NCBI GenBank assembly: GCA_965203175.1
Contig: OZ241867.1
Location: forward strand, 2,656,001-2,720,000
From: Candidatus Latescibacterota bacterium
GTDB lineage: Bacteria; Latescibacterota; UBA2968; UBA8231
DNA length: 64,000 nucleotides
Direction: 5' to 3'
Below are positions 37,210 to 60,100 of this stretch, in pieces. A program made the translations under genes and the position numbers. Below the pieces are notes generated by a model, which saw only the letters and a list, made by a program, of their open reading frames with translations, did no database searches and was not told the origin of the DNA. Numbering within the stretch: position 1 is the first letter of the stretch; the number at the start of each line of letters is the position of its first letter.

Positions 37210-37526
37210 AGCGTTCTATCCTCCTTAAACGGGCCGCAGTAAAGGCAAGTTGCGGCAGTATAAAGGGCCTTTGGACAACCGGCGTCAAGCCGTGCAGCGG
37301 TGGCGAAACGGCTTGACGAAAAATGCTGACCGTTCTATTTTTGGCGGACATACAAGTGGAAGATGTAAAGGAGTAGCTGTTCTTTTAATATTGACCAGTG
37401 AGCTGACAACCTACCCAAAATTTCCACGGCGCGATATTCAATCCAACCCATAAGCGCCGTTTTTCATTCCCGACTAAAACACTACTGAAGCCCGTCGAGC
37501 GGGCCGATTTGGAGAGGAGGTGCGTC

Positions 37527-39629
37527 GTGTCCTTGCGCACTCGAACGCTTCTTCCTATAGGATTTATTGCCCTGTACACGTTTGTTCAATGCAGCCAACC
37601 GGCGACCCCGGCTCCGGCACCGCCGCAGCCCAAGTACATCGGCGATCTGCCGGTATTGCAATCCCACGGCAAATTGCGTGTCATCGTCCCCCCGGAGCCG
37701 CTGGCCCACATGCCCAAGCGCGCGGAACCCGTGACGATTGACTACGATCTCGCCCGCGACTTGGCCGCAGAGCTCAATCTAGAACTGATGCTGGTAAAGG
37801 CCGAAAATCATGCCCAGATGGTCCAGAAGCTGTTGGAAGGCGAAGGCGACATCGTCGCTGCTAGCCTGACGATTACAGCAGCGCGCCAGGAGCAAGTGGC
37901 GTTTTCCATGCCGTATCTCTACGTGGATGAATATCTGATCACCGCGGCCAGTGACAGCCTGCCGGCGACGATTGAGGACTTGGCCGGGATGAAAATCGGC
38001 GTCCGGCGCTCCAGCTCGCACTACGAGACTCTATTGGATATTCAGCAACGAGTGCCGTCATTGCAGATTCACACCGCGCCGGAGAAGCTCGGCCTTGAGT
38101 ACCTCCTCGACGGCATCGTCCGCGGCGAATACCATGCGACCGTATCCGACGAACACTTGTGGCGGGGGGTGGAAAGCTACTACGACAACATGGTTACGCC
38201 GCTAATGGTGGCCGAAAACCGCCCGATTGCCCTGATGATGCGGCCCGCCGATGTGCGACTCAAGACCAAGGTCGATGAATATCTGCTCGCCCAGCAGTTT
38301 ACGCGCCAGTCCCAGCAGGCCTTCACCGACGATCTGCCCGGCTTAAAAGAGCGTCGGCGGTTGCGCATGATCACCCGCAATAATGCGCTGACCTATTTCA
38401 TCCATCGCGGCCGACAGGTGGGCTTTGAATACGAGCTTATAAAGGAATTCGCCGACCGGCACGCCCTGCGTCTCGATATCGTCATTCCAGAAAGCCACGC
38501 CGATCTGCTGGCGTATTTGAACGAAGGTAAAGGCGATGTCGTGGCCGCGGCGATGACCATTACCGAGGAGCGACGGGCACAGGCGGCGTTTACCCTGCCC
38601 TATAACGAAGTGGACGAGTTAGTGGTCGTGCGCGCTGAGGAGGATTCGATTGCTAGCCTCCAGGACTTGGTCGGGCGTACGATCCACGTGCGCCAAAGCT
38701 CTTCTTTTTATACCACCCTGATAGCCTTTGCCGATTCCATAGAGGGCTTGCAGATCGCGGCACTGCCCGACTCCATCGAAACCGAAGACATCTTGGCCGG
38801 CGTCGAAGAGGGTCGCTACGACGTTACCCTGTGCGACTCCAATCTGCTCGACGTAGAACTTGCCTACGGGCGCCAGCTCAAGGCGGCTTTTAGCATCAAG
38901 CCAACGGCTTTGGGGTGGGCGGTGCGCGAGGACAATCCAGCCTTGCTAGCGGCTCTCAACCAGTATGTAAAAGAAGAAAAGGGTGGCTTGTTTTTTAACA
39001 TGATGAAGAAGCGATACTTCGAAAACAAGCGCACCATCGCCAAAGCGAAGGATTCGCTGCGGGTCGATTTGAGCGGCCGCCTGTCGCCCTATGATGAGCT
39101 GGTAAAAAAATACGCCCGCCAGTACGGCCAGGATTGGCGCTTGATTACCGCGCAGATGTACCAGGAATCCAAGTTCGATCCCCAGGCCATTAGCTGGGTC
39201 GGCGCTCGCGGACTGATGCAGATTATGCCGGTCACAGGACTCGAGCTGGGAGTTACCGATCTGCACGACCCCGAAGAGAATATCCACGCGGGAGTGAAGT
39301 ACATGTCCCAACTGGTCAACCGCTTTGATTCGAACATACCCATAGAGGAACGGACGCGCTTGGCGCTGGCCGCCTACAATGTCGGGTACGGGCACGTGCT
39401 CGATGCGCGCCGCTTGGCCCGCGAAAATGGGTGGAATCCCAACCAGTGGTTTGGCCACGTGGAACAGGCGATGCGGCTGCTTGCTAATCCGGCGTATCAC
39501 GAACGGGCGCGCTATGGCTTCTGTCGCTGCGGCCAGCCCGTGCATTACGTTGGCAACATTCAGAGTATGTACGACGCCTATATCGGGATGCTGACGATGG
39601 TGAGGGAGTCGGACCCAGAGCGTCTCTGA
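37527..39629 (+). CDS. mltF: MltF-like lytic transglycosylase with two SBP_bac_3 domains
   Basis: Two PBP-type domains followed by SLT motifs YQES, GLMQ and AAYNVG. RBS GGAGG before GTG37527. Confidence 0.85.
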   Translation: MSLRTRTLLPIGFIALYTFVQCSQPATPAPAPPQPKYIGDLPVLQSHGKLRVIVPPEPLAHMPKRAEPVTIDYDLARDLAAELNLELMLVKAENHAQMVQKLLEGEGDIVAASLTITAARQEQVAFSMPYLYVDEYLITAASDSLPATIEDLAGMKIGVRRSSSHYETLLDIQQRVPSLQIHTAPEKLGLEYLLDGIVRGEYHATVSDEHLWRGVESYYDNMVTPLMVAENRPIALMMRPADVRLKTKVDEYLLAQQFTRQSQQAFTDDLPGLKERRRLRMITRNNALTYFIHRGRQVGFEYELIKEFADRHALRLDIVIPESHADLLAYLNEGKGDVVAAAMTITEERRAQAAFTLPYNEVDELVVVRAEEDSIASLQDLVGRTIHVRQSSSFYTTLIAFADSIEGLQIAALPDSIETEDILAGVEEGRYDVTLCDSNLLDVELAYGRQLKAAFSIKPTALGWAVREDNPALLAALNQYVKEEKGGLFFNMMKKRYFENKRTIAKAKDSLRVDLSGRLSPYDELVKKYARQYGQDWRLITAQMYQESKFDPQAISWVGARGLMQIMPVTGLELGVTDLHDPEENIHAGVKYMSQLVNRFDSNIPIEERTRLALAAYNVGYGHVLDARRLARENGWNPNQWFGHVEQAMRLLANPAYHERARYGFCRCGQPVHYVGNIQSMYDAYIGMLTMVRESDPERL

Positions 39630-39670: not shown

Positions 39671-41683
39671 ATGGCCGAGCCTAAGCTGCGATTCCCGGTG
39701 CGGAAGTTAGCGGCGCTCAGGCCGGGTTATCTGGCGTTGCTGTTTGTCGTGCTAGCCTTGGTGTTGGGGGCCTTTGCGCTCTATGGCCTGCGGCAGGCAC
39801 AGCAATCGACCTTAGAGACACTCGAACGTGGAGCGCGGTCGTTGGCCGAAGCGGTTTCTCGCGCCGAGGAGAACGTGCTCCGCGCCGAAGGCGACATGGA
39901 AGAACTGGTCGAGGAACGGCTGCTGGACAACGCCCGACTGCTGGCTGAGTTGGGGCTGACACAGTCGTTTTCCGACACGCTCGTGGCGCGAATTGCAGCG
40001 GACAACGCCCTCGACCAAGTCGATGTGATCGACGCGACCGGCCGGCTGGTGGCGTCGAGTGGCGTCGTCGATGCGGAGGAGTTGATGGAGTGGCAGCGGG
40101 AGTTGGAGCCGCTGCTGGGAGGCGCGGAGGAGGTGCTGCTGTTCGAGTTAGACGACCAGCTCTTTGCCGTGGCCGTGGCCATGCGGGATGGAGGCGCGGT
40201 GATTGTGCGGGCTGCGGCCGAGCGGCTTTTGCACCTGCGGATTCGCTCCGGCGCTGGTCGGCTGATCCAAGAGATCGGCACCAACCAAGACATTGTATAC
40301 ATGGCATTGCAGGATACGCTGGGCCTGTTGGCCGCTTCGCACGATTTGGTCTTACTCGAAAGCATTGCCGGCGATGCATTTCTCGAGACGGCTCTGACGC
40401 GCAATGCGGCCGCTTCGCGCCTCGTCGAGTTTGAGGGCGAGGAGATTTTTGAGGTCGTCATTCCCTTCGCGCCCCAAGGGACGACGCTGGGGCTTTTGCG
40501 CATTGGCCTCTCGCTCGACGAACTCCGAGCGCAGGAGCAGCGCGGGCGGCTGCAAGTGGCGTTGCTGGTACTGCTGCTCCTGATATTAGGTGCCGTGGGT
40601 GCCGGGGCGGTAATTGTGCGACAAAACTTGGCCCTGCTCAGCGATGCGTACGCGAACATACAGACCTATAGCAGCCGCATCTTGGCGCAGATGACGGACG
40701 CGGTGGTGGCCACAGATCCGGCAGGGACCATTGAAGTCTTCAACCAAGCGGCCGAGGCATTGTTCGGGGTCGAGGGTGAGCAGGTGCGGGGGCAGCGCTT
40801 GCGCGATGTATGGCCGCACGAGGCCGTGGATAGGGCCTTGGCCGGCGAGGAACTGGTGGGCTTGTCTTGTCGTTTTACGGATGCTCAAGGCCACGAGCGG
40901 ACCCTGTCGCTGTCGAGTGCACAGGTGTACAATGCCAGCGGCGAGGTGGAGACCATCGTCTTGGTGATCCAGGATCTGAGCGAGAAGGTGGCGCTGGAAG
41001 CCGATCTCCGGCGGCGCGACCGCTTGGCCTCTATGGGGGCACTGGCCTCGGGCGTGGCCCACGAAGTGCGCAACCCACTCAATGCCATCAGTGTGATCGT
41101 GCAGCGGCTGCGGCGCGAATTTACTCCGCGCACAGACGAGGGCGAATACCGCCAGCTAACCCAAGTCGTCGCCGGTGAGGTCGAGCGGGTCAATCGCATC
41201 ATCCAGCAGTTTTTGGAGCTGGCGCGTCCACCCGCACTCGCAAAGACGCGCGTAGAGCTGACGTCGATCTTAGAGCGGGCGGCTGAGACGGTCGAGCCGC
41301 AAATTCTCGCCGCTGGGCTACGGCTGGAGCGAGATTTTGCCGGCGTAGGCGAAGCCCAAGTCGATGCGGATCAACTACATCAGGCGTTGCTCAACTTACT
41401 GGTCAATGCGGTGGAAGCCACGGACGAAGGACACATCCGGCTAGCGGCCCGGTCGCTGCCCGAGGAATGGGTGGAGATCGGCGTGACTGATACCGGCCAG
41501 GGCATTCCGGTCGAAGATGCCGAGCGGATCTTCGACCTATATTTTACGACCAAGGCCGCGGGCGCGGGGTTGGGTTTGAGCTTGGTGCACCGCATCGTCG
41601 CAGAGCACGGGGGGCGCGTTGAAGTGCAGAGTGATCGCGGCGCAGGCGCGCGATTTGTCATTCTACTGCCGAGGGAATTTTGA
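39671..41683 (+). CDS. Membrane PAS sensor histidine kinase (ZraS/AtoS-like)
   Basis: Two TM segments around a periplasmic domain, PAS (FNQAAE), H-box AHEVRNPL, and N/G/F boxes. Confidence 0.92.
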   Translation: MAEPKLRFPVRKLAALRPGYLALLFVVLALVLGAFALYGLRQAQQSTLETLERGARSLAEAVSRAEENVLRAEGDMEELVEERLLDNARLLAELGLTQSFSDTLVARIAADNALDQVDVIDATGRLVASSGVVDAEELMEWQRELEPLLGGAEEVLLFELDDQLFAVAVAMRDGGAVIVRAAAERLLHLRIRSGAGRLIQEIGTNQDIVYMALQDTLGLLAASHDLVLLESIAGDAFLETALTRNAAASRLVEFEGEEIFEVVIPFAPQGTTLGLLRIGLSLDELRAQEQRGRLQVALLVLLLLILGAVGAGAVIVRQNLALLSDAYANIQTYSSRILAQMTDAVVATDPAGTIEVFNQAAEALFGVEGEQVRGQRLRDVWPHEAVDRALAGEELVGLSCRFTDAQGHERTLSLSSAQVYNASGEVETIVLVIQDLSEKVALEADLRRRDRLASMGALASGVAHEVRNPLNAISVIVQRLRREFTPRTDEGEYRQLTQVVAGEVERVNRIIQQFLELARPPALAKTRVELTSILERAAETVEPQILAAGLRLERDFAGVGEAQVDADQLHQALLNLLVNAVEATDEGHIRLAARSLPEEWVEIGVTDTGQGIPVEDAERIFDLYFTTKAAGAGLGLSLVHRIVAEHGGRVEVQSDRGAGARFVILLPREF

Positions 41684-41684
41684 A

Positions 41685-43025
41685 ATGGCTGGAGAGACCA
41701 TTCTGATAATAGACGACGAGGTCACACAGCGCGAGGCTGTGGGCGGCTATTTGCGCAAGCGGGGTTTTGTGGTCTTACAGGCCGCTAACGGACGGGAGGG
41801 ATTGACCTTATTGCAGGACCAAGTGGTCGATCTGATCATCACGGATTTGCGGATGCCGGAGTTGGATGGGATGGGGGTGCTCGCTGCCGCCCGCGACATC
41901 AACCCCGCTATCGGGGTGGTGATGGCGACGGCTTTTGGAACGGTCGATGGGGCCGTTGACGCCATGCAGGGAGGGGCTTTCTACTACCTGCAAAAGCCGA
42001 TTGATCTCGATGTGCTCGACCGGATCGTCGATCGCGCCTTGGAGCAGCGGCACCGCATCTCGGAAAACGAACTCCTCCGCGAGCAGATCGGCGAGCGGGC
42101 GTCATTTGGCGGCATTATGGGCTGCTCTCCGGCCATAGAAGAGGCCCTCAATGTGGTGGCGCGGGCCGCGCCGAGCCGGGCGACTGTGCTGTTGCGCGGC
42201 GAGTCGGGCACTGGCAAGGAACTGATGGCGCGCGCAGTACACGAAGCCAGTCCCCGGGCCGCCCAACCCTTTGTGGCCGTCAACTGCGCTGCCCTCAACA
42301 AGGGCTTGATCGAGAGCGAGCTATTCGGGCACGAGAAGGGTGCCTTTACTGGGGCCGATGCCCGGCGCGCCGGGCGCTTTGAGCAGGCCGACGGCGGCAC
42401 CCTATTCCTCGACGAATTGGCCGAAATTCCCCTCGATGTGCAGGTCAAACTTTTGCGCGTCTTACAAGAACGCAAGATCGAGCGAGTCGGCAGCGGCGTT
42501 GAGATCGAGGTTGATGTGCGGCTGATCGGGGCGACGAATCGCGATTTGGAGGCGCTGGTCGCGCAAGGAGCGTTCCGCGAGGATTTGTTTTATCGGCTCA
42601 ACGTCGTCGCGGTGGAGTTGCCGCCGTTGCGACAGCGCAAGAGCGATATTCCGCTGCTCGTGGACCACTTTCTCGCCCGCTACGCCGAGGAAAATGGCAA
42701 GGCTATTGGCGAGGTTTCCAAAGAGGCGTTGGATCTGCTGACGCGCTACGCCTATCCCGGCAATGTGCGCGAGTTGCAAAACATCGTCGAGCGCGCAGTG
42801 GTCATGGCTCGCGGTCCGGTGGTGATGCGGGCGGACTTGCCGGTCGAAGTGCAAAAAGCATCCCCAGTTGCAGACACCTTGACCGCGCAAGTGGAGGAAT
42901 TGGAGAAGAAGGCCATTGCCCAGGCCTTGGAGCGGTCCGGTGGTGTTCAGAGTCGCGCCGCCGAACTGCTGGGGCTGACCGAGCGCAATCTGCGCTACAA
43001 GCTGAAGAAGTACGGGCTAAAGTAG
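41685..43025 (+). CDS. Sigma54-dependent response regulator (ZraR/AtoC/NtrC family)
   Basis: REC (IDDE, TDLRMP), GESGTGKE, GAFTGA, Fis-type HTH. Confidence 0.94.
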   Translation: MAGETILIIDDEVTQREAVGGYLRKRGFVVLQAANGREGLTLLQDQVVDLIITDLRMPELDGMGVLAAARDINPAIGVVMATAFGTVDGAVDAMQGGAFYYLQKPIDLDVLDRIVDRALEQRHRISENELLREQIGERASFGGIMGCSPAIEEALNVVARAAPSRATVLLRGESGTGKELMARAVHEASPRAAQPFVAVNCAALNKGLIESELFGHEKGAFTGADARRAGRFEQADGGTLFLDELAEIPLDVQVKLLRVLQERKIERVGSGVEIEVDVRLIGATNRDLEALVAQGAFREDLFYRLNVVAVELPPLRQRKSDIPLLVDHFLARYAEENGKAIGEVSKEALDLLTRYAYPGNVRELQNIVERAVVMARGPVVMRADLPVEVQKASPVADTLTAQVEELEKKAIAQALERSGGVQSRAAELLGLTERNLRYKLKKYGLK

Positions 43026-43027
43026 CT

Positions 43028-44188
43028 TCAGAAGCCGAATTGGATGCCGACGGAATACGCATGGGCGTCTGTGTCGTAGAAAGCGTCGTTGGACGCCACT
43101 GAGCGGTAGAGCCACTCCAATTCGAGGGCCATTTCTCGGAACGGGGTGCTGTCTAGGTAGAATGCGCGCGCTAGCCCCAAGCGCGCGGTGCGGCGCGTTT
43201 CAGTCGTGGATTCCCCCGTGAAAACTCCGGCGAGATCGTAGGCTGGCCTTTGGCCGTAGAGGCGACTTTCGCGATGGAAGGAGGCCGCTAGCTCGCAGTT
43301 TAACGGAGCCAAGTACTTCAGGGTAGCACTCCAGTGATCCCCGCTATAGCTGTAGCGGTCTTCAAAGAGTTCATCTGGATCGTACCAGTACGCCTTGGAT
43401 TGCGCCTTATAAAGTTCATCTGGATCGTACCAGTACGCCTTGGTCTTGTAAGGGTCGTCAAAGAGTTTGTTCGGGTCGTACCAGAACCAATCAGCATAGC
43501 GGCTCTGACCGGCGAGGATGCCTTGGTGGTGCCATGCTAGCTGCAACCCAAGGTTGGGACCAAGTGATTGAGCGGCTTTGAGGCGGATGCCCCATAGGAG
43601 TGGGTTGCGGCTGGGCTGGGCTGTTTCTTGTAAATAGGACTTAAGGCCCAACTCGCCGTTAAGCTGCAAAGTGGTGCGGCTGGGCAGGTAGTGGGTTAGC
43701 TGAGCATCGAGATGCTGTTCGCGGTAGCTGTAGTCAGCGGCGTTGAGAAAGTTTTGGTAGCTGAAGGTATAGTCTAGGCGAGTGATAAGCGCTGGGTGCA
43801 GATACGGTTCGAAGCTGGCGAAGGCTCGGCCAGCGGCAAAGTCGCGGTAGTCGTAGAGCGGGCGGTCCAAGCGCAGGCTCAGTGTGGTGCCGGCGAAGAA
43901 TAGACCCGCCGCGCCCAAGGGGCGCGCATAGCTTGCGCCAAAGCTGTGCAAATGGTTGAAGAGGTCGGCGTTTTTGCTGAATACGTTGGCGTTGCCCGAG
44001 TAGTACAAGCTCAAGTCTGTGTCGAACTGGTAGTCGAAGTCGATATAGGCCGACTGCATTAGATCGCCGCGCTGGCTGGCCGTGAGAAAAACATTGTCCG
44101 TATAGGTGGCATATAGGTCGGCGTTGAGGGCGACTTGGGCTTCAGCTACGGAAAGCAGCGCGACTAGATAGGCCGGTAGATATCTCAT
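43028..44188 (-). CDS. Putative outer-membrane beta-barrel protein
   Basis: Signal peptide, alternating aromatic beta-strands, C-terminal YSVGIQFGF. Confidence 0.7.
   Translation of the reverse strand: MRYLPAYLVALLSVAEAQVALNADLYATYTDNVFLTASQRGDLMQSAYIDFDYQFDTDLSLYYSGNANVFSKNADLFNHLHSFGASYARPLGAAGLFFAGTTLSLRLDRPLYDYRDFAAGRAFASFEPYLHPALITRLDYTFSYQNFLNAADYSYREQHLDAQLTHYLPSRTTLQLNGELGLKSYLQETAQPSRNPLLWGIRLKAAQSLGPNLGLQLAWHHQGILAGQSRYADWFWYDPNKLFDDPYKTKAYWYDPDELYKAQSKAYWYDPDELFEDRYSYSGDHWSATLKYLAPLNCELAASFHRESRLYGQRPAYDLAGVFTGESTTETRRTARLGLARAFYLDSTPFREMALELEWLYRSVASNDAFYDTDAHAYSVGIQFGF
43368..43489. repeat. In-frame tandem repeat in the barrel gene
   Basis: Exact 31-bp copies at 43368-98 and 43413-43 (45-bp period) plus a degenerate third copy. 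Encodes three WYDP(D/N)(E/K)L(F/Y) units. Confidence 0.9.
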
Positions 44189-44886
44189 TTGCCCCCCTTT
44201 TTCTTGGGCTGTTTGGGATCGCCTTTTTTGAGATGCGGCGGCACGCGGCGGCGTTTGAGGCGTTTTTTGGTGAGGTCTTGTACGCGCTCGTCCGGGTGCC
44301 TCAGGAGGCGGCGCAACAGGCGGGCGTCGTCGATGCCGTCGCCGTCCTCGTCCAAGAAGAAGTCCATCCGCCGTTTTTGAGCGTGCAGTCGCTGGTGCAG
44401 CCGCTTGAGCGGGTCGTGCATGCCGTCGCCATCGGCGTCGCGGAATTGCTTGACTTGGTGCCGGCGCTCTTCAAAGACGCGGCCAAAGCGATAGCCCAGC
44501 AGCCCGTGCGGGCCGTACTTTGCACCGGTGATGTCGTTTAAGCGGTCGCCATTGAAATCGACGACATTGTCGATGAAGCCGTCGTCGTCCGCGTCGCGGA
44601 AGCGGCCGTCGAGGTCGTTTACGCCGTCGCCGTCTTGGTCGCGGAAGCGGTCGTTTACGCCGTCTTCGTCTTTGTCTAAAAAGGGGAAGTGGTGGGGATA
44701 AGGCTGGCCGTTGAGGTCGTTTACGCCGTCGCCGTCTTGGTCGCGGAAGCGGTCGTTTACGCCGTCGCGGTCGGCATCGACATAGCCGACAATGGGCGCA
44801 GGGGACGCAGCCTCCTCTGGCGGCCCAGGTTGGGCGTGAACGGAACAGGCCAGCAGGGCGCTGGCGACGATAGCGATAACGACCAT
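44185..44886 (-). CDS. Secreted DxDxDG-repeat (EF-hand-like) putative Ca-binding protein with basic tail
   Basis: Signal peptide and eight Dx[DN]xD[GR] loops. Exact 54-bp DNA duplication at 44611-64 and 44713-66. Confidence 0.75.
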   Translation of the reverse strand: MVVIAIVASALLACSVHAQPGPPEEAASPAPIVGYVDADRDGVNDRFRDQDGDGVNDLNGQPYPHHFPFLDKDEDGVNDRFRDQDGDGVNDLDGRFRDADDDGFIDNVVDFNGDRLNDITGAKYGPHGLLGYRFGRVFEERRHQVKQFRDADGDGMHDPLKRLHQRLHAQKRRMDFFLDEDGDGIDDARLLRRLLRHPDERVQDLTKKRLKRRRVPPHLKKGDPKQPKKKGGK

Positions 44887-44903
44887 GTTTTTCTCAAAAG
44901 ATG

Positions 44904-44935
44904 CAGTAGGGGCGACCGGCCGGTCGCCCCTACTG
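44904..44935. repeat. GTAG-type REP-like perfect palindrome
   Basis: CAGTAGGGGCGACCGG|CCGGTCGCCCCTACTG, 32 bp, intergenic. Confidence 0.85.
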
Positions 44936-44938
44936 GGA

Positions 44939-45682
44939 TTACTGGCCGAAGGAGTCCTTGACGCGGCCCCAACTCGTCTGCTCGACGGCTGCAGCTTTGC
45001 CCGCAGCCGCTGTCTCGGTCGTCTCGGTTTCTTCTTCGCTGTTCTTCGAATGGCAGCCGCGATTGGCCTTTAGGTCTTCGAGAGTTGCAAGCTGATCAGC
45101 GGTCAGAATGGCCTCAAAATCGGTGCTGAATTCTTCGCGCAGGGCTTGCCACCCCTCTTTGAGGTCCTCTCTGAGTTCCTCGATCTGCTCTTGCTGGTCT
45201 TCGGTCAAGCCGAGTTGCTCGGCGAGTGAGTCCTTGTGTCCGCCGCGATTGGCCTTTAGTTCTTCGAGGGTTTCGCTCTGCTCGTCGGTCAGGATGTCCT
45301 CAAGGCTGGAGAGGAACTCTTCTTTGGTCAGGTCCTGGTCTTTGAGAGCTTGGATTTGCGTCTGCTGGTCTTCGGTCAGGCCGAGCGGGTTCCTGATTTC
45401 TTCGAGGGTTTCGAGCTGTTCGTCAGTTAGGATGGCCTCAACGTCGGTCCAGTACTCTTTGCGGAGGGCCTGCTTCTGCTCGTGTAGGGTGTCTTTGAGT
45501 GTTTGGATTTGCGTCTGCTGGTCTTCGCTCAGGCCGAGTTGCTCAATCAATGAGCCTTTGTGCCCGCTTTTCTTGCCGTACCCGTGGAATCCCCGCTTGC
45601 CTCCCCAGCCTTTTGCCGAGGTGTCCATAGCCGCCGCGGCCACCAGAAGCAGCGCGGCTGCGATGACCCATGTTGTCTTCAT
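44939..45682 (-). CDS. Spy/CpxP-like LTxxQ-repeat exported protein with C-terminal SWGRVK tail
   Basis: Signal peptide, six L(T/S)xxQ motifs, an E/T/A linker, then AVEQTSWGRVKDSF. Confidence 0.8.
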   Translation of the reverse strand: MKTTWVIAAALLLVAAAAMDTSAKGWGGKRGFHGYGKKSGHKGSLIEQLGLSEDQQTQIQTLKDTLHEQKQALRKEYWTDVEAILTDEQLETLEEIRNPLGLTEDQQTQIQALKDQDLTKEEFLSSLEDILTDEQSETLEELKANRGGHKDSLAEQLGLTEDQQEQIEELREDLKEGWQALREEFSTDFEAILTADQLATLEDLKANRGCHSKNSEEETETTETAAAGKAAAVEQTSWGRVKDSFGQ

Positions 45683-45747
45683 GATGCTCCTCCTTGCATG
45701 GGATGAGTGTGATGCTCAACGTGCATTGTCGAGTCGCACTGTGTTAG

Positions 45748-45763
45748 AGCAACATGTGTGCCA
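45748..45763 (-). promoter_or_regulatory. Sigma54 -24/-12 promoter
   Basis: Minus strand TGGCACACATGTTGCT matches TGGCAC-N5-TTGCW. Confidence 0.88.
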
Positions 45764-45849
45764 CGTTGGAAAATTTTTTGCAAAATGCGGTTTTACAGTG
45801 GGCAAAACCTCGCGTCGTTGTAAAGATGTCCAAGACTCGGTGCGACAGG

Positions 45850-45955
45850 TTCGACCAAATGGTCGAAGCAGGTATTTCTTAATGTAACGCAACATTTTGT
45901 TTCTATTTTATTTATAACGCATTCGTCCAAAGTCAGAAATTCGACCAAATGGTCG
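45850..45955. promoter_or_regulatory. Paired palindromic enhancer (bEBP) sites
   Basis: TTCGACCAAATGGTCG at 45850-65 and 45940-55, 90 bp apart, upstream of the sigma54 promoter. Confidence 0.75.
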
Positions 45956-45980
45956 CTAGCTAGACAAAGCCCGCTAAACC

Positions 45981-47375
45981 TTATCCGCGTCCGAACACCT
46001 TCGCCGGCAGATACGTAGCCAGTTCCGGCACGAACCACAGCCCCGCTAACAGCAGCACCTGAATCGCGATAAAGGGCACGACTCCTCGGTAGATTTGCGG
46101 CGTGCTGATTTCAGGGGGAGCGACGCCGCGCAAGTAAAAGAGCGAGAAGCCAAACGGGGGCGTGAGAAAAGAGGTTTGCAAGTTCAGGGCGATCATCACG
46201 CCCAACCACACGGGATCCAAGCCCATAGTCAAGAGGATCGGGCCGACGATGGGGACGACGACGAAGATGATCTCGAAAAAGTCGAGAAAAAAGCCGAGCA
46301 AAAACATCACGGCCATCACTAACGCGAAAGAGCCGAGCACGCCGCCGGTTGCCTCATGGGTCAGAAAGGCCTCGACTGCTTCGTCGCCTCCGTAGCCGCG
46401 AAAGACCAGCGAAAACACGCTCGCGCCAATGAGTATGATGAAGACCATGGCGTTGATCTCGGTGGTGGTGCGCATGACTTCTTTGAGCGCGGTGCGGTTG
46501 AAGTGCCCTTTGGCCAGCGACAAGAGCATGGCACCAACCGCGCCGACCGAAGCCGCCTCGGTCGGCGTGGCCACTCCGAAGAGGATAGAGCCGAGCACTC
46601 CACAGATGAGGACTAGGGGCGGGACGAGGGCCGCGCCGAGGCGGCGGAGGAAGGCCGCACTGAGAATTTGTGCGCGCTCTTCGGCTGGCACAGCCGGCAC
46701 GGTAGCAGGCTTGAGGAGGCCGAGGCCGATTATATAGAGAATATAGAGGCCCATCAGCACGAAGCCGGGCACGACCGCGCCCATAAAGAGGTCGCCAACC
46801 GACACGGAGACCGGGGCGAAATTGCCCATTTTGAGTTGTGCTTGTTGGTACGCCGAGGAGACCACGTCGCCGAGGATGACCAACACAATGCTGGGCGGGA
46901 TGATCTGGCCCAGCGTCCCCGAAGCGCAGATGATGCCGGTGGAAACCGCTGGGGAGTACGCGCGTTTGAGCATGGCCGGCAGCGAGATGAGTCCCATGGT
47001 GACGACCGTCGCGCCGACGATGCCGGTGGAAGCCGCCAACAGACCTCCGACGAGGCAAACCGAAATCCCCAGTCCGCCGCACAAGCTGCCGCAGAGCTGG
47101 GCCATGGTTTCGAGTAGGTCCTCGGCGATTTTCGAACGCTCTAGCACGACTCCCATAAAGACGAACAGCGGCACGGCCATCAGGGTCTCGTTGGACATGA
47201 TGCCGTAGATGCGGGCCGGCAAAGCCGAGAGAAAGGCCGCGTCAAAGTCTCCGGTGAGGACGCCGAGGCCGGCAAAGCCAAGGGCCGTACCCGCGAGGCA
47301 AAAGGCCACTGGGAAACCGGATAGCAGCACCGCGAAGGTGCAGAAGAACATGGCCAGCGGCGCGAATTCGCTCAT
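45981..47375 (-). CDS. dctM: TRAP transporter large permease
   Basis: SGTLGQIIPPS, ATPTEAA, LTPPFG. Confidence 0.92.
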   Translation of the reverse strand: MSEFAPLAMFFCTFAVLLSGFPVAFCLAGTALGFAGLGVLTGDFDAAFLSALPARIYGIMSNETLMAVPLFVFMGVVLERSKIAEDLLETMAQLCGSLCGGLGISVCLVGGLLAASTGIVGATVVTMGLISLPAMLKRAYSPAVSTGIICASGTLGQIIPPSIVLVILGDVVSSAYQQAQLKMGNFAPVSVSVGDLFMGAVVPGFVLMGLYILYIIGLGLLKPATVPAVPAEERAQILSAAFLRRLGAALVPPLVLICGVLGSILFGVATPTEAASVGAVGAMLLSLAKGHFNRTALKEVMRTTTEINAMVFIILIGASVFSLVFRGYGGDEAVEAFLTHEATGGVLGSFALVMAVMFLLGFFLDFFEIIFVVVPIVGPILLTMGLDPVWLGVMIALNLQTSFLTPPFGFSLFYLRGVAPPEISTPQIYRGVVPFIAIQVLLLAGLWFVPELATYLPAKVFGRG

Positions 47376-55879: not shown

Positions 55880-57361
55880 TTACACGTCGTAGTAGAGTGC
55901 GAACTCATAGGGATGAGGCCGCAAGCGGATGGCGTCGACTTCCTCGGTGCGCTTGTAGTCAATCCACGCGTCGATCAAGTCGTCCGAAAATACATCCCCC
56001 TGCAACAGAAAGTCCCGATCCTGCTCCAAGTTGTCCAACGACGCCTCCAACGAACCGGCCGTCTGCGGAACACCCGCTCGCTCCTCCGCCGACAGATCAT
56101 ACAGATTCTTGTCCAAAGGTTCACCCGGATCAAGCTGACGCTCGATCCCGTCCAACCCCGCCATCAGCATCGCCGACAGCGCCAAGTAGATGTTGCACGA
56201 CGGATCCGGACAGCGGAACTCCACCCGCTTGCTCTTGGGTGAAGGTGAATACATCGGAATGCGCACCGACGCACTGCGGTTGCGCTGCGAATAGGCCAGG
56301 TTCACCGGCGCCTCGTAGCCGGGCACCAGCCGCTTGTAGGAGTTGGTCGTCGGATTGGTAAACGCCAACAGCGCCGGCGCGTGGTGCAACAGCCCGCCGA
56401 TGTAGTGCAACGCCATCTGGCTCAGCCCGGCGTAGCCACTACCGGCAAACAACGGCGTATCGCCCTGCCACAGACTCTGGTGGGTGTGCATGCCCGTGCC
56501 GTTGTCCTCAAACAGCGGCTTGGGCATGAACGTGGCCGTCTTGCCGTGCCGATGCGCCACATTCTTGACGATGTATTTGTACAGCATCATCCGATCGCCG
56601 CAGATAAGCAGCGGACAAAAGCGAATGTCGATCTCGCCTTGGCCGGCGGTGCCCACCTCGTGGTGGTGGATCTCTGTGTCAATGCCGCAGTCGAGCATCG
56701 TCTGCACCATCTCGGTGCGAATGTCTTGCAGCGAATCCGTCGGCGGCACGGGGAAGTAGCCGCCCTTGTAATCGGGCTTGTAGCCGAGGTTAGGTCGGTC
56801 GGCGGAACCGGAGTTCCAGCGGCCTTCCTGCGAGTCGATCTCGTAGAATCCCAGATGGGCTTGCTGGTCGAAGCGGATGTTGTCGAAGATGAAAAACTCC
56901 GCTTCCGGTCCAAAGAATGCCGTGTCGGCTAGCTGGGTGCGTTGCAGATAGGCTTGGGCGCGCTGGGCGACGCCGCGGGGATCGCGGGCATAGGGCTGGC
57001 GGGTGATGGGGTCTTCAATCGAGCAGATCAGCGACAGAGTCGGCACCTGGGTGAACGGATCCATCACCGCGGTGGTCGGATCGGGCAGGACGAGCATGTC
57101 GGATTCGTTGATTTCCTGCCAGCCGCGAATGGAGGAGCCGTCGAAGCCGAGGCCTTCTTCGAACACGTCGGGTTCCAAATCGGCGATGGGCATGGTAAAG
57201 TGTTGCCAGGTGCCGGGCAGATCGACGAACTTGAAATCGACCATCTGCGCGTTGTTCTGGCGTGCTAAGGCCAGCGCCGACGAGACCGCGCTAGGCCCGG
57301 ATGACTTCGTTTTGGCTTTGGCTTTCGTTTTGGCTTTAGCTTTGGCTTTGGCTTTGGCCAT
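55880..57361 (-). CDS. glnA: Glutamine synthetase type I (GSI-beta) with Lys/Ala-rich N-terminal extension
   Basis: FDGSSI, HHEVGT, FMPKP..DNGTGMH, adenylylation-site NLYDL. Confidence 0.97.
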
Positions 57362-58581: not shown

Positions 58582-59919
58582 TTAGTTGTTGATGTGCTGA
58601 AAATCCGCGTACGCGGGCTGGCCGTGCTCACTTAAGTCGAGGCCCTCATCCTCGTCTTCCTCATCGACGCGGAACCCGAGTGTCGCCTTGACAATGGTCG
58701 CGAGGATAAAGGAAAAGACAAAGGCGAAGATGGCAAAAGATAGGGTACCCAATAGCTGGATGCCTACACTGTGGTCGGCGTTGGTACTGAATATCCCGAC
58801 CGCGACCGTGCCCCAGACGCCACAGATGCCGTGGACGGAGATGGCACCGACCGGATCGTCGATCTTGATGCGGTCGATAAAGACAATAGAGAAGACGACG
58901 ATGATTCCGGCGATTAGCCCAATCCAGATGGCTCCGCCCCAAGTGACCACGTCGGCACCAGCCGTGATGCCCACTAGCCCGGCGAGAATGCCGTTGAGCG
59001 CCATGGTGATGTCGGGCTTTTTAAGGTAAATATAAGAGGTAAAAATCGAAGCCATGCAACCGGCCGCAGCGGCGAGGGTCGTGGTGACGAAGACCAGCGA
59101 TACGGCCGCGGGGTCGGCGCTGAGCACCGAGCCGCCGTTGAAGCCGAACCAGCCGAGCCAGAGCAGGAAGACGCCGATAGTTGACAGCGGCATGCTGTGC
59201 CCGAGGATGGGCCTGATTTCCCCGTTGTGGTATTTGCCCTTGCGCGCCCCTAGCACTATGACTGCGGCGAGGGCCGAAAAGCCGCCAAAAGCGTGCACTA
59301 CCGACGAACCGGCGAAGTCGTAGAAACCGAGGTCATCGAGCCAGCCAGCGCCCCACTTCCAGGAGCCTGCTATGGTGTAGCCAAAGGCCACCAAAATCGC
59401 GGCGTAGAGCATGAAGCCCGACAGCTTGACGCGCTCGGCCACCGCACCGGAGACGATGGTGGCGGCGGTGGCGGCAAACATGGCTTGGAAGATGAAGTCC
59501 GACCAATAGGTGTAATCTGCGTACTGATTGGTCAGATTGGCCACATCGTCGTCAAAGCCGATCCAGCCCTTGAGGGCCAACACATCGGCGATGATCCAAT
59601 CGTCGCCCGGATACATGATGTTGAAACCGCACAAGGCGTAGGTGAGGATGCCGGCCGAGATGATAAAGAGGTTCTTGAAGAGGATGTTGACCGTGTTCTT
59701 CTGCCGGGTCAGGCCGGATTCGAGCGTGGCAAAGCCCAAGTGCATGATGAAGACCAACGCTGCGGCGATGAGAATCCACAGGTTGTCCACCATGAATTTG
59801 GGATAGGCCAAGGGCATGGCCTGAAAATCTTCCATGGCTCCGGCTGAAGCCTGAGTGGCCGCCCCGAGGACCCCGGCACAGATCCATAAGAGCGAAGGAC
59901 GGTTGCGAAAAACAGACAT
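58582..59919 (-). CDS. amtB: Ammonium transporter
   Basis: FQAMFAAT, DFAGSSVVH, WFGFNGGS, DDPVGAISVHG. Confidence 0.96.
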   Translation of the reverse strand: MSVFRNRPSLLWICAGVLGAATQASAGAMEDFQAMPLAYPKFMVDNLWILIAAALVFIMHLGFATLESGLTRQKNTVNILFKNLFIISAGILTYALCGFNIMYPGDDWIIADVLALKGWIGFDDDVANLTNQYADYTYWSDFIFQAMFAATAATIVSGAVAERVKLSGFMLYAAILVAFGYTIAGSWKWGAGWLDDLGFYDFAGSSVVHAFGGFSALAAVIVLGARKGKYHNGEIRPILGHSMPLSTIGVFLLWLGWFGFNGGSVLSADPAAVSLVFVTTTLAAAAGCMASIFTSYIYLKKPDITMALNGILAGLVGITAGADVVTWGGAIWIGLIAGIIVVFSIVFIDRIKIDDPVGAISVHGICGVWGTVAVGIFSTNADHSVGIQLLGTLSFAIFAFVFSFILATIVKATLGFRVDEEDEDEGLDLSEHGQPAYADFQHINN

Positions 59920-59995
59920 GGGCAATCCCTTCCCTTGAATGAGGTAAGGAGGCATCCTGTCGATGCCTCGTAGATGCGAACGTCGGATACTACAA

Positions 59996-60011
59996 GGCAA
60001 GAAATGTGCCA
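59996..60011 (-). promoter_or_regulatory. Sigma54 promoter of amtB-glnK-porin-glnA
   Basis: Minus strand TGGCACATTTCTTGCC. Confidence 0.87.
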
Positions 60012-60100
60012 AGTGGATTGAGTGCGGATACGTCAGAATTGTAGCTTATTGTAAATTAGGGAGTTAGAAAAAATAACAATAAAGAGAGAAACGAGGTCGG

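Follow-up and report, generated by a model that had tools for sequence, protein, structure and literature searches.

To our knowledge, envelope-stress circuits built around LTXXQ proteins (Cpx, Zra, Spy) have hardly been described outside the Enterobacteria and their relatives, where the outputs are single periplasmic proteins. In the ZraPSR system, ZraS is the kinase, ZraR the sigma54 activator and ZraP a periplasmic chaperone of the LTXXQ family; the system is described as zinc-dependent, with zraP and zraSR transcribed from divergent promoters that both depend on ZraR (PMC4987338). Here we analyze a locus in a 64,000-nucleotide stretch of a Candidatus Latescibacterota genome (contig OZ241867.1, positions 2,656,001 to 2,720,000; the whole 64 kb stretch is hereafter called the window), in which a sigma54 promoter precedes genes for an LTXXQ-repeat protein, a protein with DxDxDG-type loops and an outer-membrane beta-barrel, and a kinase/sigma54-regulator gene pair converges on this operon from the opposite strand. 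Taken as a whole, the locus is best explained as a self-contained envelope signal-response module, a reading that we hold to be somewhat better than an even prospect. A search of the open-access literature found no description of this gene set.

The operon forms a compact unit on the minus strand (45955-43028) in which two palindromes, a sigma54 element, a ribosome-binding site, gene 1, a hairpin, gene 2 and gene 3 follow one another. The parts of the module are these:

45942-45955, no strand assigned: distal palindrome CGACCAAATGGTCG, an identical copy of the proximal one and 90 bp beyond it; predicted upstream activating sequence
45852-45865, no strand assigned: proximal palindrome CGACCAAATGGTCG, in its extended form TCGACCAWWTGGTCGA; predicted upstream activating sequence
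45763-45748, minus strand: sigma54 (-24/-12) promoter TGGCACACATGTTGCT, an exact match to the consensus, 66 nt before the gene 1 ATG
Before 45682, minus strand: ribosome-binding site AGGAGG, 6 nt 5' of the gene 1 ATG
45682-44939, minus strand: gene 1 (P0001), 247 aa, exported LTXXQ-repeat protein, Spy/CpxP/ZraP-like
44904-44935, minus strand: intercistronic hairpin between genes 1 and 2, a G+C-rich 14-bp stem followed by CATCTTTTGA
44886-44185, minus strand: gene 2 (P0002), 233 aa, exported protein with eight DxDxDG-type loops
44188-43028, minus strand: gene 3 (P0003), 386 aa, outer-membrane beta-barrel
41685-43025, plus strand: NtrC-family sigma54 response regulator with REC, AAA+ and Fis-type HTH domains
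39671-41683, plus strand: sensor histidine kinase, 670 aa, with PAS, HisKA and HATPase_c domains

Each of the three minus-strand open reading frames opens with a signal-peptide-like sequence. Gene 2 and the barrel gene are translationally coupled through an ATGA overlap at 44188-44185, where the ATG of gene 3 shares bases with the TGA of gene 2, and the barrel stop codon (43028-43030) faces the regulator TAG ending at 43025 across a gap of 2 bp. The first-pass annotation of this DNA, made from the letters alone, had described a consensus sigma54 promoter at 45748-63 with two identical palindromes upstream, driving an exported LTxxQ-repeat protein, an exported eight-loop protein and a beta-barrel coupled by an ATGA overlap, in an operon that ends 2 bp from the stop of a kinase/sigma54-regulator pair. 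All of these elements proved to be present as described.

Conservation of the locus was assessed by scanning one genome per species with a profile of the barrel, which gave 119 pattern matches, of which 20 were confirmed as loci (L001-L020) and compared by tblastn. The DxDxDG gene is found in 19 of the 20, directly upstream of the barrel gene in 18 and after the regulator in L015; in L012 no DxDxDG gene was seen within the fetched DNA. A complete kinase and regulator pair accompanies the barrel in 17/20 loci, and in L008 the contig ends inside the regulator. Relative to the window proteins, identity ranges from 53 to 96% for the regulator and from 36 to 96% for the kinase, and falls to 30% for the barrel, so that the five genes, whose neighborhood conservation the first-pass annotation had named as a check, are co-conserved down to about 30% barrel identity. 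The two-component genes are convergent with the barrel in most loci, lie 3' of it on the same strand in L012 and L015, and stand about 5 kb upstream in L016; in the window and 12 loci the DxDxDG and barrel genes overlap by 4 bp. The TRAP transporter, rpiA and MltF-like genes of the neighborhood are kept alongside only in close relatives, and with this wider synteny restricted to them, the module itself emerges as the conserved unit.

The regulatory DNA is conserved together with the genes. An exact TGGCAC-N5-TTGCW occurs once in the window, at the operon promoter. When one mismatch is allowed, the window holds 4 matches to the sigma54 consensus against 2.25 expected, so the match alone is unremarkable, and it is the conservation across loci that is notable: a -24/-12 match with at most one mismatch lies upstream of the first gene in 16/16 loci with usable upstream DNA (this set leaves out L009, L014 and L018, which start inside or just before the DxDxDG gene, and L011, where the region has been lost). 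The palindrome CGACCAAATGGTCG occurs exactly twice in the window, both times upstream of the operon: counted from the promoter TGG, the first bases of the two copies lie 102 and 192 nt further upstream, a spacing of 90 bp. By chance, 0.52 matches with up to two mismatches would be expected in the window. Across loci its consensus is CGACC-N4-GGTCG. Allowing two mismatches, we found 41 matches over the 331,757 bp of the 20 loci, of which 24 lie at -260 to -60 relative to the promoters, that is, within 3,216 bp for which 0.17 matches are expected from the remaining sequence. Their positions concentrate near -100 to -120 and -180 to -195. A palindrome is kept 60-260 bp upstream of the promoter in 15/16 loci, including 8/9 among those with barrel identity of at most 52%; the sixteenth locus, L020, has the variant CGACGATCTCGTCG at -103. 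The background matches are partly accounted for by sites at the LTXXQ gene of L019, remnants in L011 and a recurrent two-mismatch site in the regulator gene. By sequence comparison, promoter and palindromes are thus phylogenetically footprinted. An inverted repeat at enhancer distance from a sigma54 promoter, together with an enhancer-binding regulator, is what textbooks describe for this class, and we regard the circuit, from signal to kinase to a regulator acting on the palindromes and thereby on the sigma54 promoter, as very probable. In an Rfam scan of 42800-46100 the leader showed no riboswitch, and a sigma70 promoter scan of the region returned 0 sites; a Guanidine-III match in the coding region was sub-threshold (19 bits vs 36) and was taken as chance.

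The position of the palindromes invites a different explanation, in which they serve as a terminator for dctM, the two-component genes encode a DctB/DctD-like pair for the TRAP transporter, and the exported genes are unrelated neighbors. The transporter genes dctPQM do lie directly upstream of the operon on the same strand, the dctM stop being 26 bp before the distal palindrome, and the long periplasmic domain of the kinase gives weak Cache-type matches (sCache_3_2, E 0.0067; dCache_1, E 0.073). However, only L001, L002, L004-L008, L011 and L013 have TRAP genes alongside the module, and no TRAP match above threshold was seen in L003, L009, L010, L012 and L014-L020 (in L003, L009, L014 and L018 the contig ends shortly upstream of the operon). 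Promoter, palindromes, barrel and two-component genes occur together without TRAP genes in L003, L010, L012, L015-L017, L019 and L020; furthermore, the promoter is directed to gene 1, away from dctM, and a 5-bp stem with a 4-nt loop would make a poor terminator. We consider this explanation largely refuted and scarcely credible.

The comparison with ZraPSR is closest in regulatory logic. The kinase has a periplasmic domain of about 250 aa enclosed by two hydrophobic segments (residues 19-40 and 294-316, approximately), after which come the PAS, HisKA and HATPase_c domains. The regulator probably starts at the ATG at 41685, 1 nt past the kinase stop, in a frame that is open from a TTG at 41619, and is matched by the Pfam families Sigma54_activat (241.7 bits), Response_reg (89 bits) and HTH_8 (58.6 bits). 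Both systems combine a kinase and an NtrC-type regulator with a sigma54 promoter on the gene for a periplasmic LTXXQ protein (PMC4987338), a role taken here by P0001 and its promoter. The regulator matches the ZraR model, and the kinase the ZraS model, strongly though below the cut-offs. The regulator belongs to the same class as ZraR (REC, AAA+, HTH_8) but is not its orthologue; the kinase is not of the ZraS type, since the match is confined to residues 435-668 and the present sensor domain is different and larger. Where zraP and zraSR are divergent, the present genes are convergent and, in the window, the kinase gene lacks an upstream sigma54 match or palindrome; where ZraPSR has one output gene there are three, and in the LTXXQ protein the unit is present in triplicate. 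The enhancer, too, is of its own kind (CGACC-N4-GGTCG), and the lineage is Latescibacterota/Gemmatimonadota. As judged from these comparisons, the regulatory logic is Zra/Cpx-like and the system is not a Zra orthologue. The "expanded Zra-like system" of the first-pass annotation is therefore apt for the LTXXQ, sigma54 and kinase-NtrC logic, and inapt with regard to orthology, gene orientation and visible autoregulation.

The first product of the operon fits this logic. P0001 is a helical, acidic protein with a signal peptide (net charge of the mature form -25, pI 4.5) and consists of three tandem units with two LTxxQ-type motifs each, six in total, joined by Gly/His/Lys-rich linkers. It matches Pfam LTXXQ (PF07813) in two stretches with 40.5 bits (cut-off 24.3), and its counterparts in L005, L013 and L019 score 37.8, 27.7 and 28.0 bits. 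Signal peptide, helical acidic character, paired LTxxQ motifs and PF07813 match are shared with Spy and CpxP; P0001 is not orthologous to them, staying below the equivalog cut-offs, and differs in its three units, in their variable copy number and in being replaced in distant loci by a type led by a DxDxDG motif. P0001-type genes stand first in the operon in L001-L006 and L013 (tblastn) and encode 211-356 aa with 6-10 LTxxQ motifs, the number of units differing between close relatives. The LTxxQ units and the Gly/Lys/His/Tyr-rich linkers vary even where the other module proteins are about 80-97% identical to those of the window, for example in L005 (8173-9243, with repeated GFGKHGFGKY) and L013 (8583-9218), and gene 1 appears to evolve fast through gain and loss of repeats. 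In L007, L008, L010, L012, L015 and L020 the first position is occupied by a divergent small exported helical protein, which has a DxDxDG motif right after the signal peptide, LTxxQ...LRESGAS.EEI-type repeats and a Gly/Arg/His-rich end.

In L017 and L019 the operon begins with the DxDxDG gene. The LTXXQ gene of L019 (14445-15243) is a separate transcription unit a few kb away with two palindromes of its own and a GGCAT-N7-TTGCT sigma54-like element about 100 bp downstream of them. No other single observation points as clearly to one regulon for the LTXXQ protein and the DxDxDG-barrel pair.

Genes 1 and 2 are separated by a hairpin whose predicted minimum free energy is -30 kcal/mol (z-score -6.4; 0/200 shuffles fold as well) and which is followed by a short T-run and was also caught by a terminator scan. 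A strong hairpin is predicted at this place in 13/13 regions folded (the window and L001-L008, L010, L013, L016 and L020), the sequences being unrelated; in a shuffle test of six regions the z-scores ranged from -3.5 to -9.6, and in each 0/200 shuffles folded as well. From these folding predictions, the hairpin is likely a partial terminator or an mRNA-stabilising stem-loop that would raise expression of gene 1 over genes 2 and 3. The window hairpin contains CGACC-GGCC-GGTCG, the half-sites of the upstream palindromes with a different spacer; a role as third regulator site was considered and not adopted, as other loci carry unrelated hairpin sequences there.

The second product, P0002, has no match in Pfam and belongs to a family with at least 524 relatives (clusters at 90% identity; word-indexed search, 8,000 candidates scored), all unnamed or "hypothetical", whose labels, taken from public record titles, include Latescibacterota, Gemmatimonadota, Glassbacteria, Poribacteria and others. 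Across the family the eight loops stand in a fixed arrangement, separated by conserved spacers (YPHxFxF, NDITG, GYRFGR) and followed by a polybasic tail, and 43 alignment columns are invariant, most of them at the D, G and N positions within the loops. In P0002 the core (residues 30-190) is acidic, with a net charge of -16, and the C-terminal tail (191-233) carries +14. The AlphaFold2 model reaches a pLDDT of about 90 for residues 30-160 with almost no regular secondary structure, and a fold search against the Protein Data Bank (PDB) gave nothing below E 8.5. The aspartate-rich DxDxDGxxD loops recall those of the TSP3 and dockerin type, a likeness at motif level (family profile against the TSP3-like repeats of the OmpA-family structure 5wtl, E 0.27; against dockerin, 0.59); the family is set apart from TSP3-type proteins by its fixed layout, its own spacers, its polybasic tail and its lack of a match to a solved fold. 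Neither P0002 nor its relatives match a curated Ca2+-binding repeat family of Pfam (0/40 family members, two of which show unrelated matches at chance level). In the protein atlas, the best score for P0002 is 0.87, to unnamed clusters, and TSP3_bac is found in 35% of the members of a neighboring cluster (score 0.83), which we treat as leads only. We considered P0002 as a lipoprotein and rejected this, since its LLAC motif occurs in the closest clade only and more distant homologues have no cysteine there.

The third product is an outer-membrane barrel by its general characters: a signal peptide, a closed antiparallel barrel in the model, short turns and an aromatic C-terminal beta-signal. The AlphaFold2 model of P0003 (mean pLDDT 82.9, pTM 0.77) has 16 long strands with hydrophobic/polar alternation, the first of which begins at residue 18, right after the signal peptide; the periplasmic turns are 2-7 residues and the loops up to 55 residues long. 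P0003 ends in ...GIQFGF, in line with the conserved GxQxGF terminus of the family, so the earlier assignment of the last protein as a beta-barrel holds. One long surface loop (227-281), acidic and aromatic, carries WYDPDEL repeats and has low model confidence at 232-275; in relatives of 366 aa the loop is short and the repeats are missing. Internal repeat expansion, which had been claimed for all three genes, is thus seen in gene 1 and in this loop; in the DxDxDG protein the eight loops are fixed family architecture and no recent expansion. A profile search of 1.84 billion representatives returned 750 barrel relatives (representatives at 50% identity; E <=0.001), with 555 at <=1e-10 and 175 at <=1e-30, nearly all of 350-450 aa and all named "hypothetical protein"; the same profile matched, among PDB sequences, antibody chains at chance level only.

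A link to the type XI secretion system (T11SS) and its Slam proteins, as suggested by the first-pass annotation, comes from distant members of this family. Among 50 of them, hand-picked across the ranking from the 150 best of 750, 10 match PF04575 (SlipAM, the Pfam model of the Slam/DUF560 barrel) at E <=0.01, 5 of these above the 22-bit cut-off, and 40 do not. Positive relatives include P0293, P0369 and P0370; for P0293, 3/4 database relatives have a precomputed PF04575 annotation. DUF560 proteins are described as 14-stranded barrels with an N-terminal tetratricopeptide repeat (TPR) domain of about 140 aa and a cargo with a C-terminal 8-stranded barrel (PMC8406197); T11SS are described as spread across Proteobacteria, and a marine T11SS cluster co-occurs with DUF1194 proteins in place of barrel-domain cargo (PMC12282271). 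The present pair resembles these systems in that a single outer-membrane barrel gene adjoins the gene of a Sec-exported partner, and in the PF04575 similarity that some distant family members show in their C-terminal third. It differs from them in several respects: P0003 has no N-terminal TPR domain (cf. PMC8406197), its predicted strand number is 16 rather than 14 (cf. PMC8406197), and the model of P0002 is almost without beta structure where an 8-stranded cargo barrel would be found (cf. PMC8406197, PMC12282271). None of the 40 P0002 family members matches a cargo-barrel family of Pfam, of the TbpBBD type or other. In the available text of the T11SS account the word "sigma" occurs 0 times (PMC12282271), whereas the present operon stands under a sigma54 promoter. 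As TPR domain, strand number and cargo domain all disagree, we do not file the barrel as a T11SS; by its sequence relationships, the family is plausibly a distant branch of the broad Slam/DUF560 barrel superfamily, and the "Slam/T11SS-like" idea has gained some support from sequence.

Together these observations suggest how the module could work. A cue from the periplasm, most likely divalent cations or damage to the envelope, would be sensed by the membrane kinase with its periplasmic domain, and the kinase would phosphorylate the NtrC-type regulator. Dimers of the regulator would bind both CGACC-N4-GGTCG palindromes, some 100 and 190 bp ahead of the sigma54 promoter, and spend ATP to open it. 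The operon transcript would be attenuated at the hairpin after gene 1, making the LTXXQ protein the most abundant of three Sec-exported products; this protein would act as a Spy/ZraP-like periplasmic holdase and possibly as a feedback partner of the kinase. Coupling through the ATGA would yield DxDxDG protein and barrel in roughly equal amounts, and the two would work as a pair, with the barrel in the outer membrane and the DxDxDG protein as its dedicated partner. This partner, with its acidic, probably Ca2+-loaded core and polybasic tail, may be held in the barrel or passed to the surface in a Slam-like manner. We regard a role of the module in envelope or cation stress as evenly balanced, and a DxDxDG partner docked in or translocated by the barrel as possible though doubtful; a complex prediction of barrel residues 17-386 with DxDxDG residues 20-233, using alignments, gave a score of 0.05 and a mark of 0.32 and is evidence neither way.

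Several results weigh against the module reading as a whole, in which every step of the mechanism is predicted from sequence and models. The kinase and regulator are nearest to AtoS/AtoC rather than ZraS/ZraR, and all matches are below the equivalog cut-offs: the best NCBIfam scores of the kinase, which concern its cytoplasmic part only, are 285.8 bits for AtoS (cut-off 646) and 214.8 for ZraS (cut-off 479), those of the regulator 507.9 for AtoC (cut-off 714) and 456.7 for ZraR (cut-off 760). The periplasmic domain of the kinase has no recognisable relative in Pfam or in a PDB sequence search, and so does not identify the signal. In the window, the region upstream of the kinase gene holds neither a sigma54 match nor a palindrome, so that Zra-style autoregulation is not visible. 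Matches of P0001 to the Spy and CpxP equivalogs of NCBIfam are weak (34.3 bits, cut-off 174, and 25.1 bits, cut-off 148), as is the match to the Spy structure 3oeo in the PDB sequence search (E 0.63). Moreover, gene 1 is not uniform across loci: the divergent type of the six distant loci gave no match in a Pfam scan and aligns only moderately to P0001 (hhalign probability 89%, E 2.2e-6, 44 columns), the first position of L016 is a DxDxDG paralogue, and L017 has no gene 1 in its operon. The putative Ca2+ binding of P0002 is a matter of motif resemblance only.

The remaining points of this kind concern the barrel. P0003 itself matches no Pfam family, PF04575 (SlipAM) and TPR included; its closer relatives give 2/41 matches to PF04575, weak ones with a best E of 0.018; and where distant members do match, only the C-terminal 120 or so residues are covered (profile positions about 154-288 of 288). 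PF04575 is also described as capturing some 16-stranded PgaA/HmsH polysaccharide porins (PMC8406197). A Foldseek comparison of the P0003 model with the PDB gave 408 barrels at E <=0.001, led by AlgE, OprD/Occ and chitoporin, a generic likeness (TM about 0.5, about 10% identity, root-mean-square deviation about 10 A) in which porins rank first. The barrel could on these grounds be a polymer-export porin of the PgaA/AlgE type, with the two soluble proteins as periplasmic accessory or scaffold factors: AlgE is the first structural match (E 2.3e-10, TMq 0.53), the 16 strands agree with those of the PgaA homologues caught by PF04575 (PMC8406197), and the barrel family has weak matches to BBP2_2 and TIGR03016, barrels of PEP-CTERM/exopolysaccharide loci. 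The structural match does not go beyond the generic level just given, however, TIGR03016 reaches 14.9 bits against a cut-off of 90.85, and neither in the module nor among co-conserved genes is there a glycosyltransferase, polymerase, Wza/Wzc-type or TPR scaffold gene, which leaves polymer export very improbable.

A further alternative is that the module serves cation homeostasis without any translocation, the barrel being an inducible porin selective for ions or solutes, the DxDxDG protein a high-capacity periplasmic buffer for Ca2+ or another metal, the LTXXQ protein a ZraP-like metal-binding chaperone and the kinase a metal sensor. In its favor, the strand residues assigned to the lumen of the barrel, as guessed from strand periodicity, are polar, and the substrate channels OprD/Occ, chitoporin and AlgE are its best structural matches; in the DxDxDG protein the D, G and N of the eight aspartate-rich loops are invariant; both types of gene 1 product contain Gly/His/Lys/Arg-rich segments, and P0001 shows a weak match to Metal_resist (18.7 bits, under the Pfam cut-off of 29.2). 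The Zra precedent is itself zinc-dependent (PMC4987338). On the other hand, a soluble buffer would have no need of strict coupling to a porin, the conserved polybasic tail is left without explanation, and neither the module nor its neighbors showed a metal transporter, an efflux pump or a metal-binding sensor motif. We judge this alternative unlikely, and retain the signal-response module, in which DxDxDG protein and barrel act as a pair, as the preferred reading.

The type of circuit is already known from Zra- and Cpx-like systems; new are the two uncharacterised protein families and the defined enhancer motif. The module extends the logic of LTXXQ circuits to the little-studied, mostly uncultured Latescibacterota and Gemmatimonadota, where the module proteins of some genomes are up to 97% identical to those of the window, and its outputs include two large families that lack annotation, the DxDxDG family with its 524 or more clusters and the barrel family with its 750 representatives. 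It also offers a way to learn what cues these organisms perceive at the cell surface, and a ready-made regulatory code of promoter, enhancer palindrome and hairpin makes heterologous reconstitution practical. Should the barrel indeed move its neighbor across the outer membrane, secretion of the Slam/T11SS type would reach beyond the Proteobacteria and use a new cargo signal. In the boldest form of this idea, which we hold to be distinctly unlikely, the barrel would represent a TPR-less, 16-stranded Slam/DUF560 branch outside the Proteobacteria that displays or secretes a new cargo class of Ca2+-folding, aspartate-loop proteins with polybasic tails, joined in many lineages by a DxDxDG-led helical LTxxQ protein; an N-terminal DxDxDG would be the targeting signal in place of a C-terminal barrel domain, and the whole would be governed by a dedicated two-component/sigma54 switch with a defined enhancer.

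Several minor observations concern the surroundings of the module and its variants. At the convergent junction of barrel and regulator (43028-43025) there is no terminator between the genes, so that the transcripts would overlap at their 3' ends unless termination takes place inside the opposite gene; some relatives have a wider gap, such as L002 with about 50 bp. The MltF-like gene (37509-39629, plus strand) encodes 706 aa with two SBP_bac_3 domains and an SLT lytic transglycosylase domain and ends 42 bp 5' of the kinase start on the same strand, so that the two may be co-transcribed; as it accompanies the module in close relatives only, it was not accepted as a sixth member. Elsewhere in the window, TGGCACATTTCTTGCC at 59996-60011 on the minus strand is a further sigma54-like element, with one mismatch; it stands at the 5' end of an open reading frame (58582-60012), and a glutamine synthetase gene (55880-57361) is a few kb away.

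L011 (9400-10900), a close relative, carries a decayed copy of the module, in which the palindromes remain (9426, 9515), promoter and gene 1 are gone, the DxDxDG gene has lost roughly its first 104 residues, the barrel match ends at residue 199 and only fragments of the kinase follow; the flanking TRAP and MltF-like genes are intact. In L019 the barrel gene runs only to residue 230, where it meets a truncated kinase, and a regulator gene was not seen; this may be a deletion or an assembly artefact. Finally, in two close relatives, L001 (13268-14920) and L004 (12517-14169), a minus-strand gene for a 550-aa ATPase (Pfam AAA_21 and AAA_15) is inserted between kinase and regulator; it is of the OLD/AbiEii-like type, which is frequent in defence genes.

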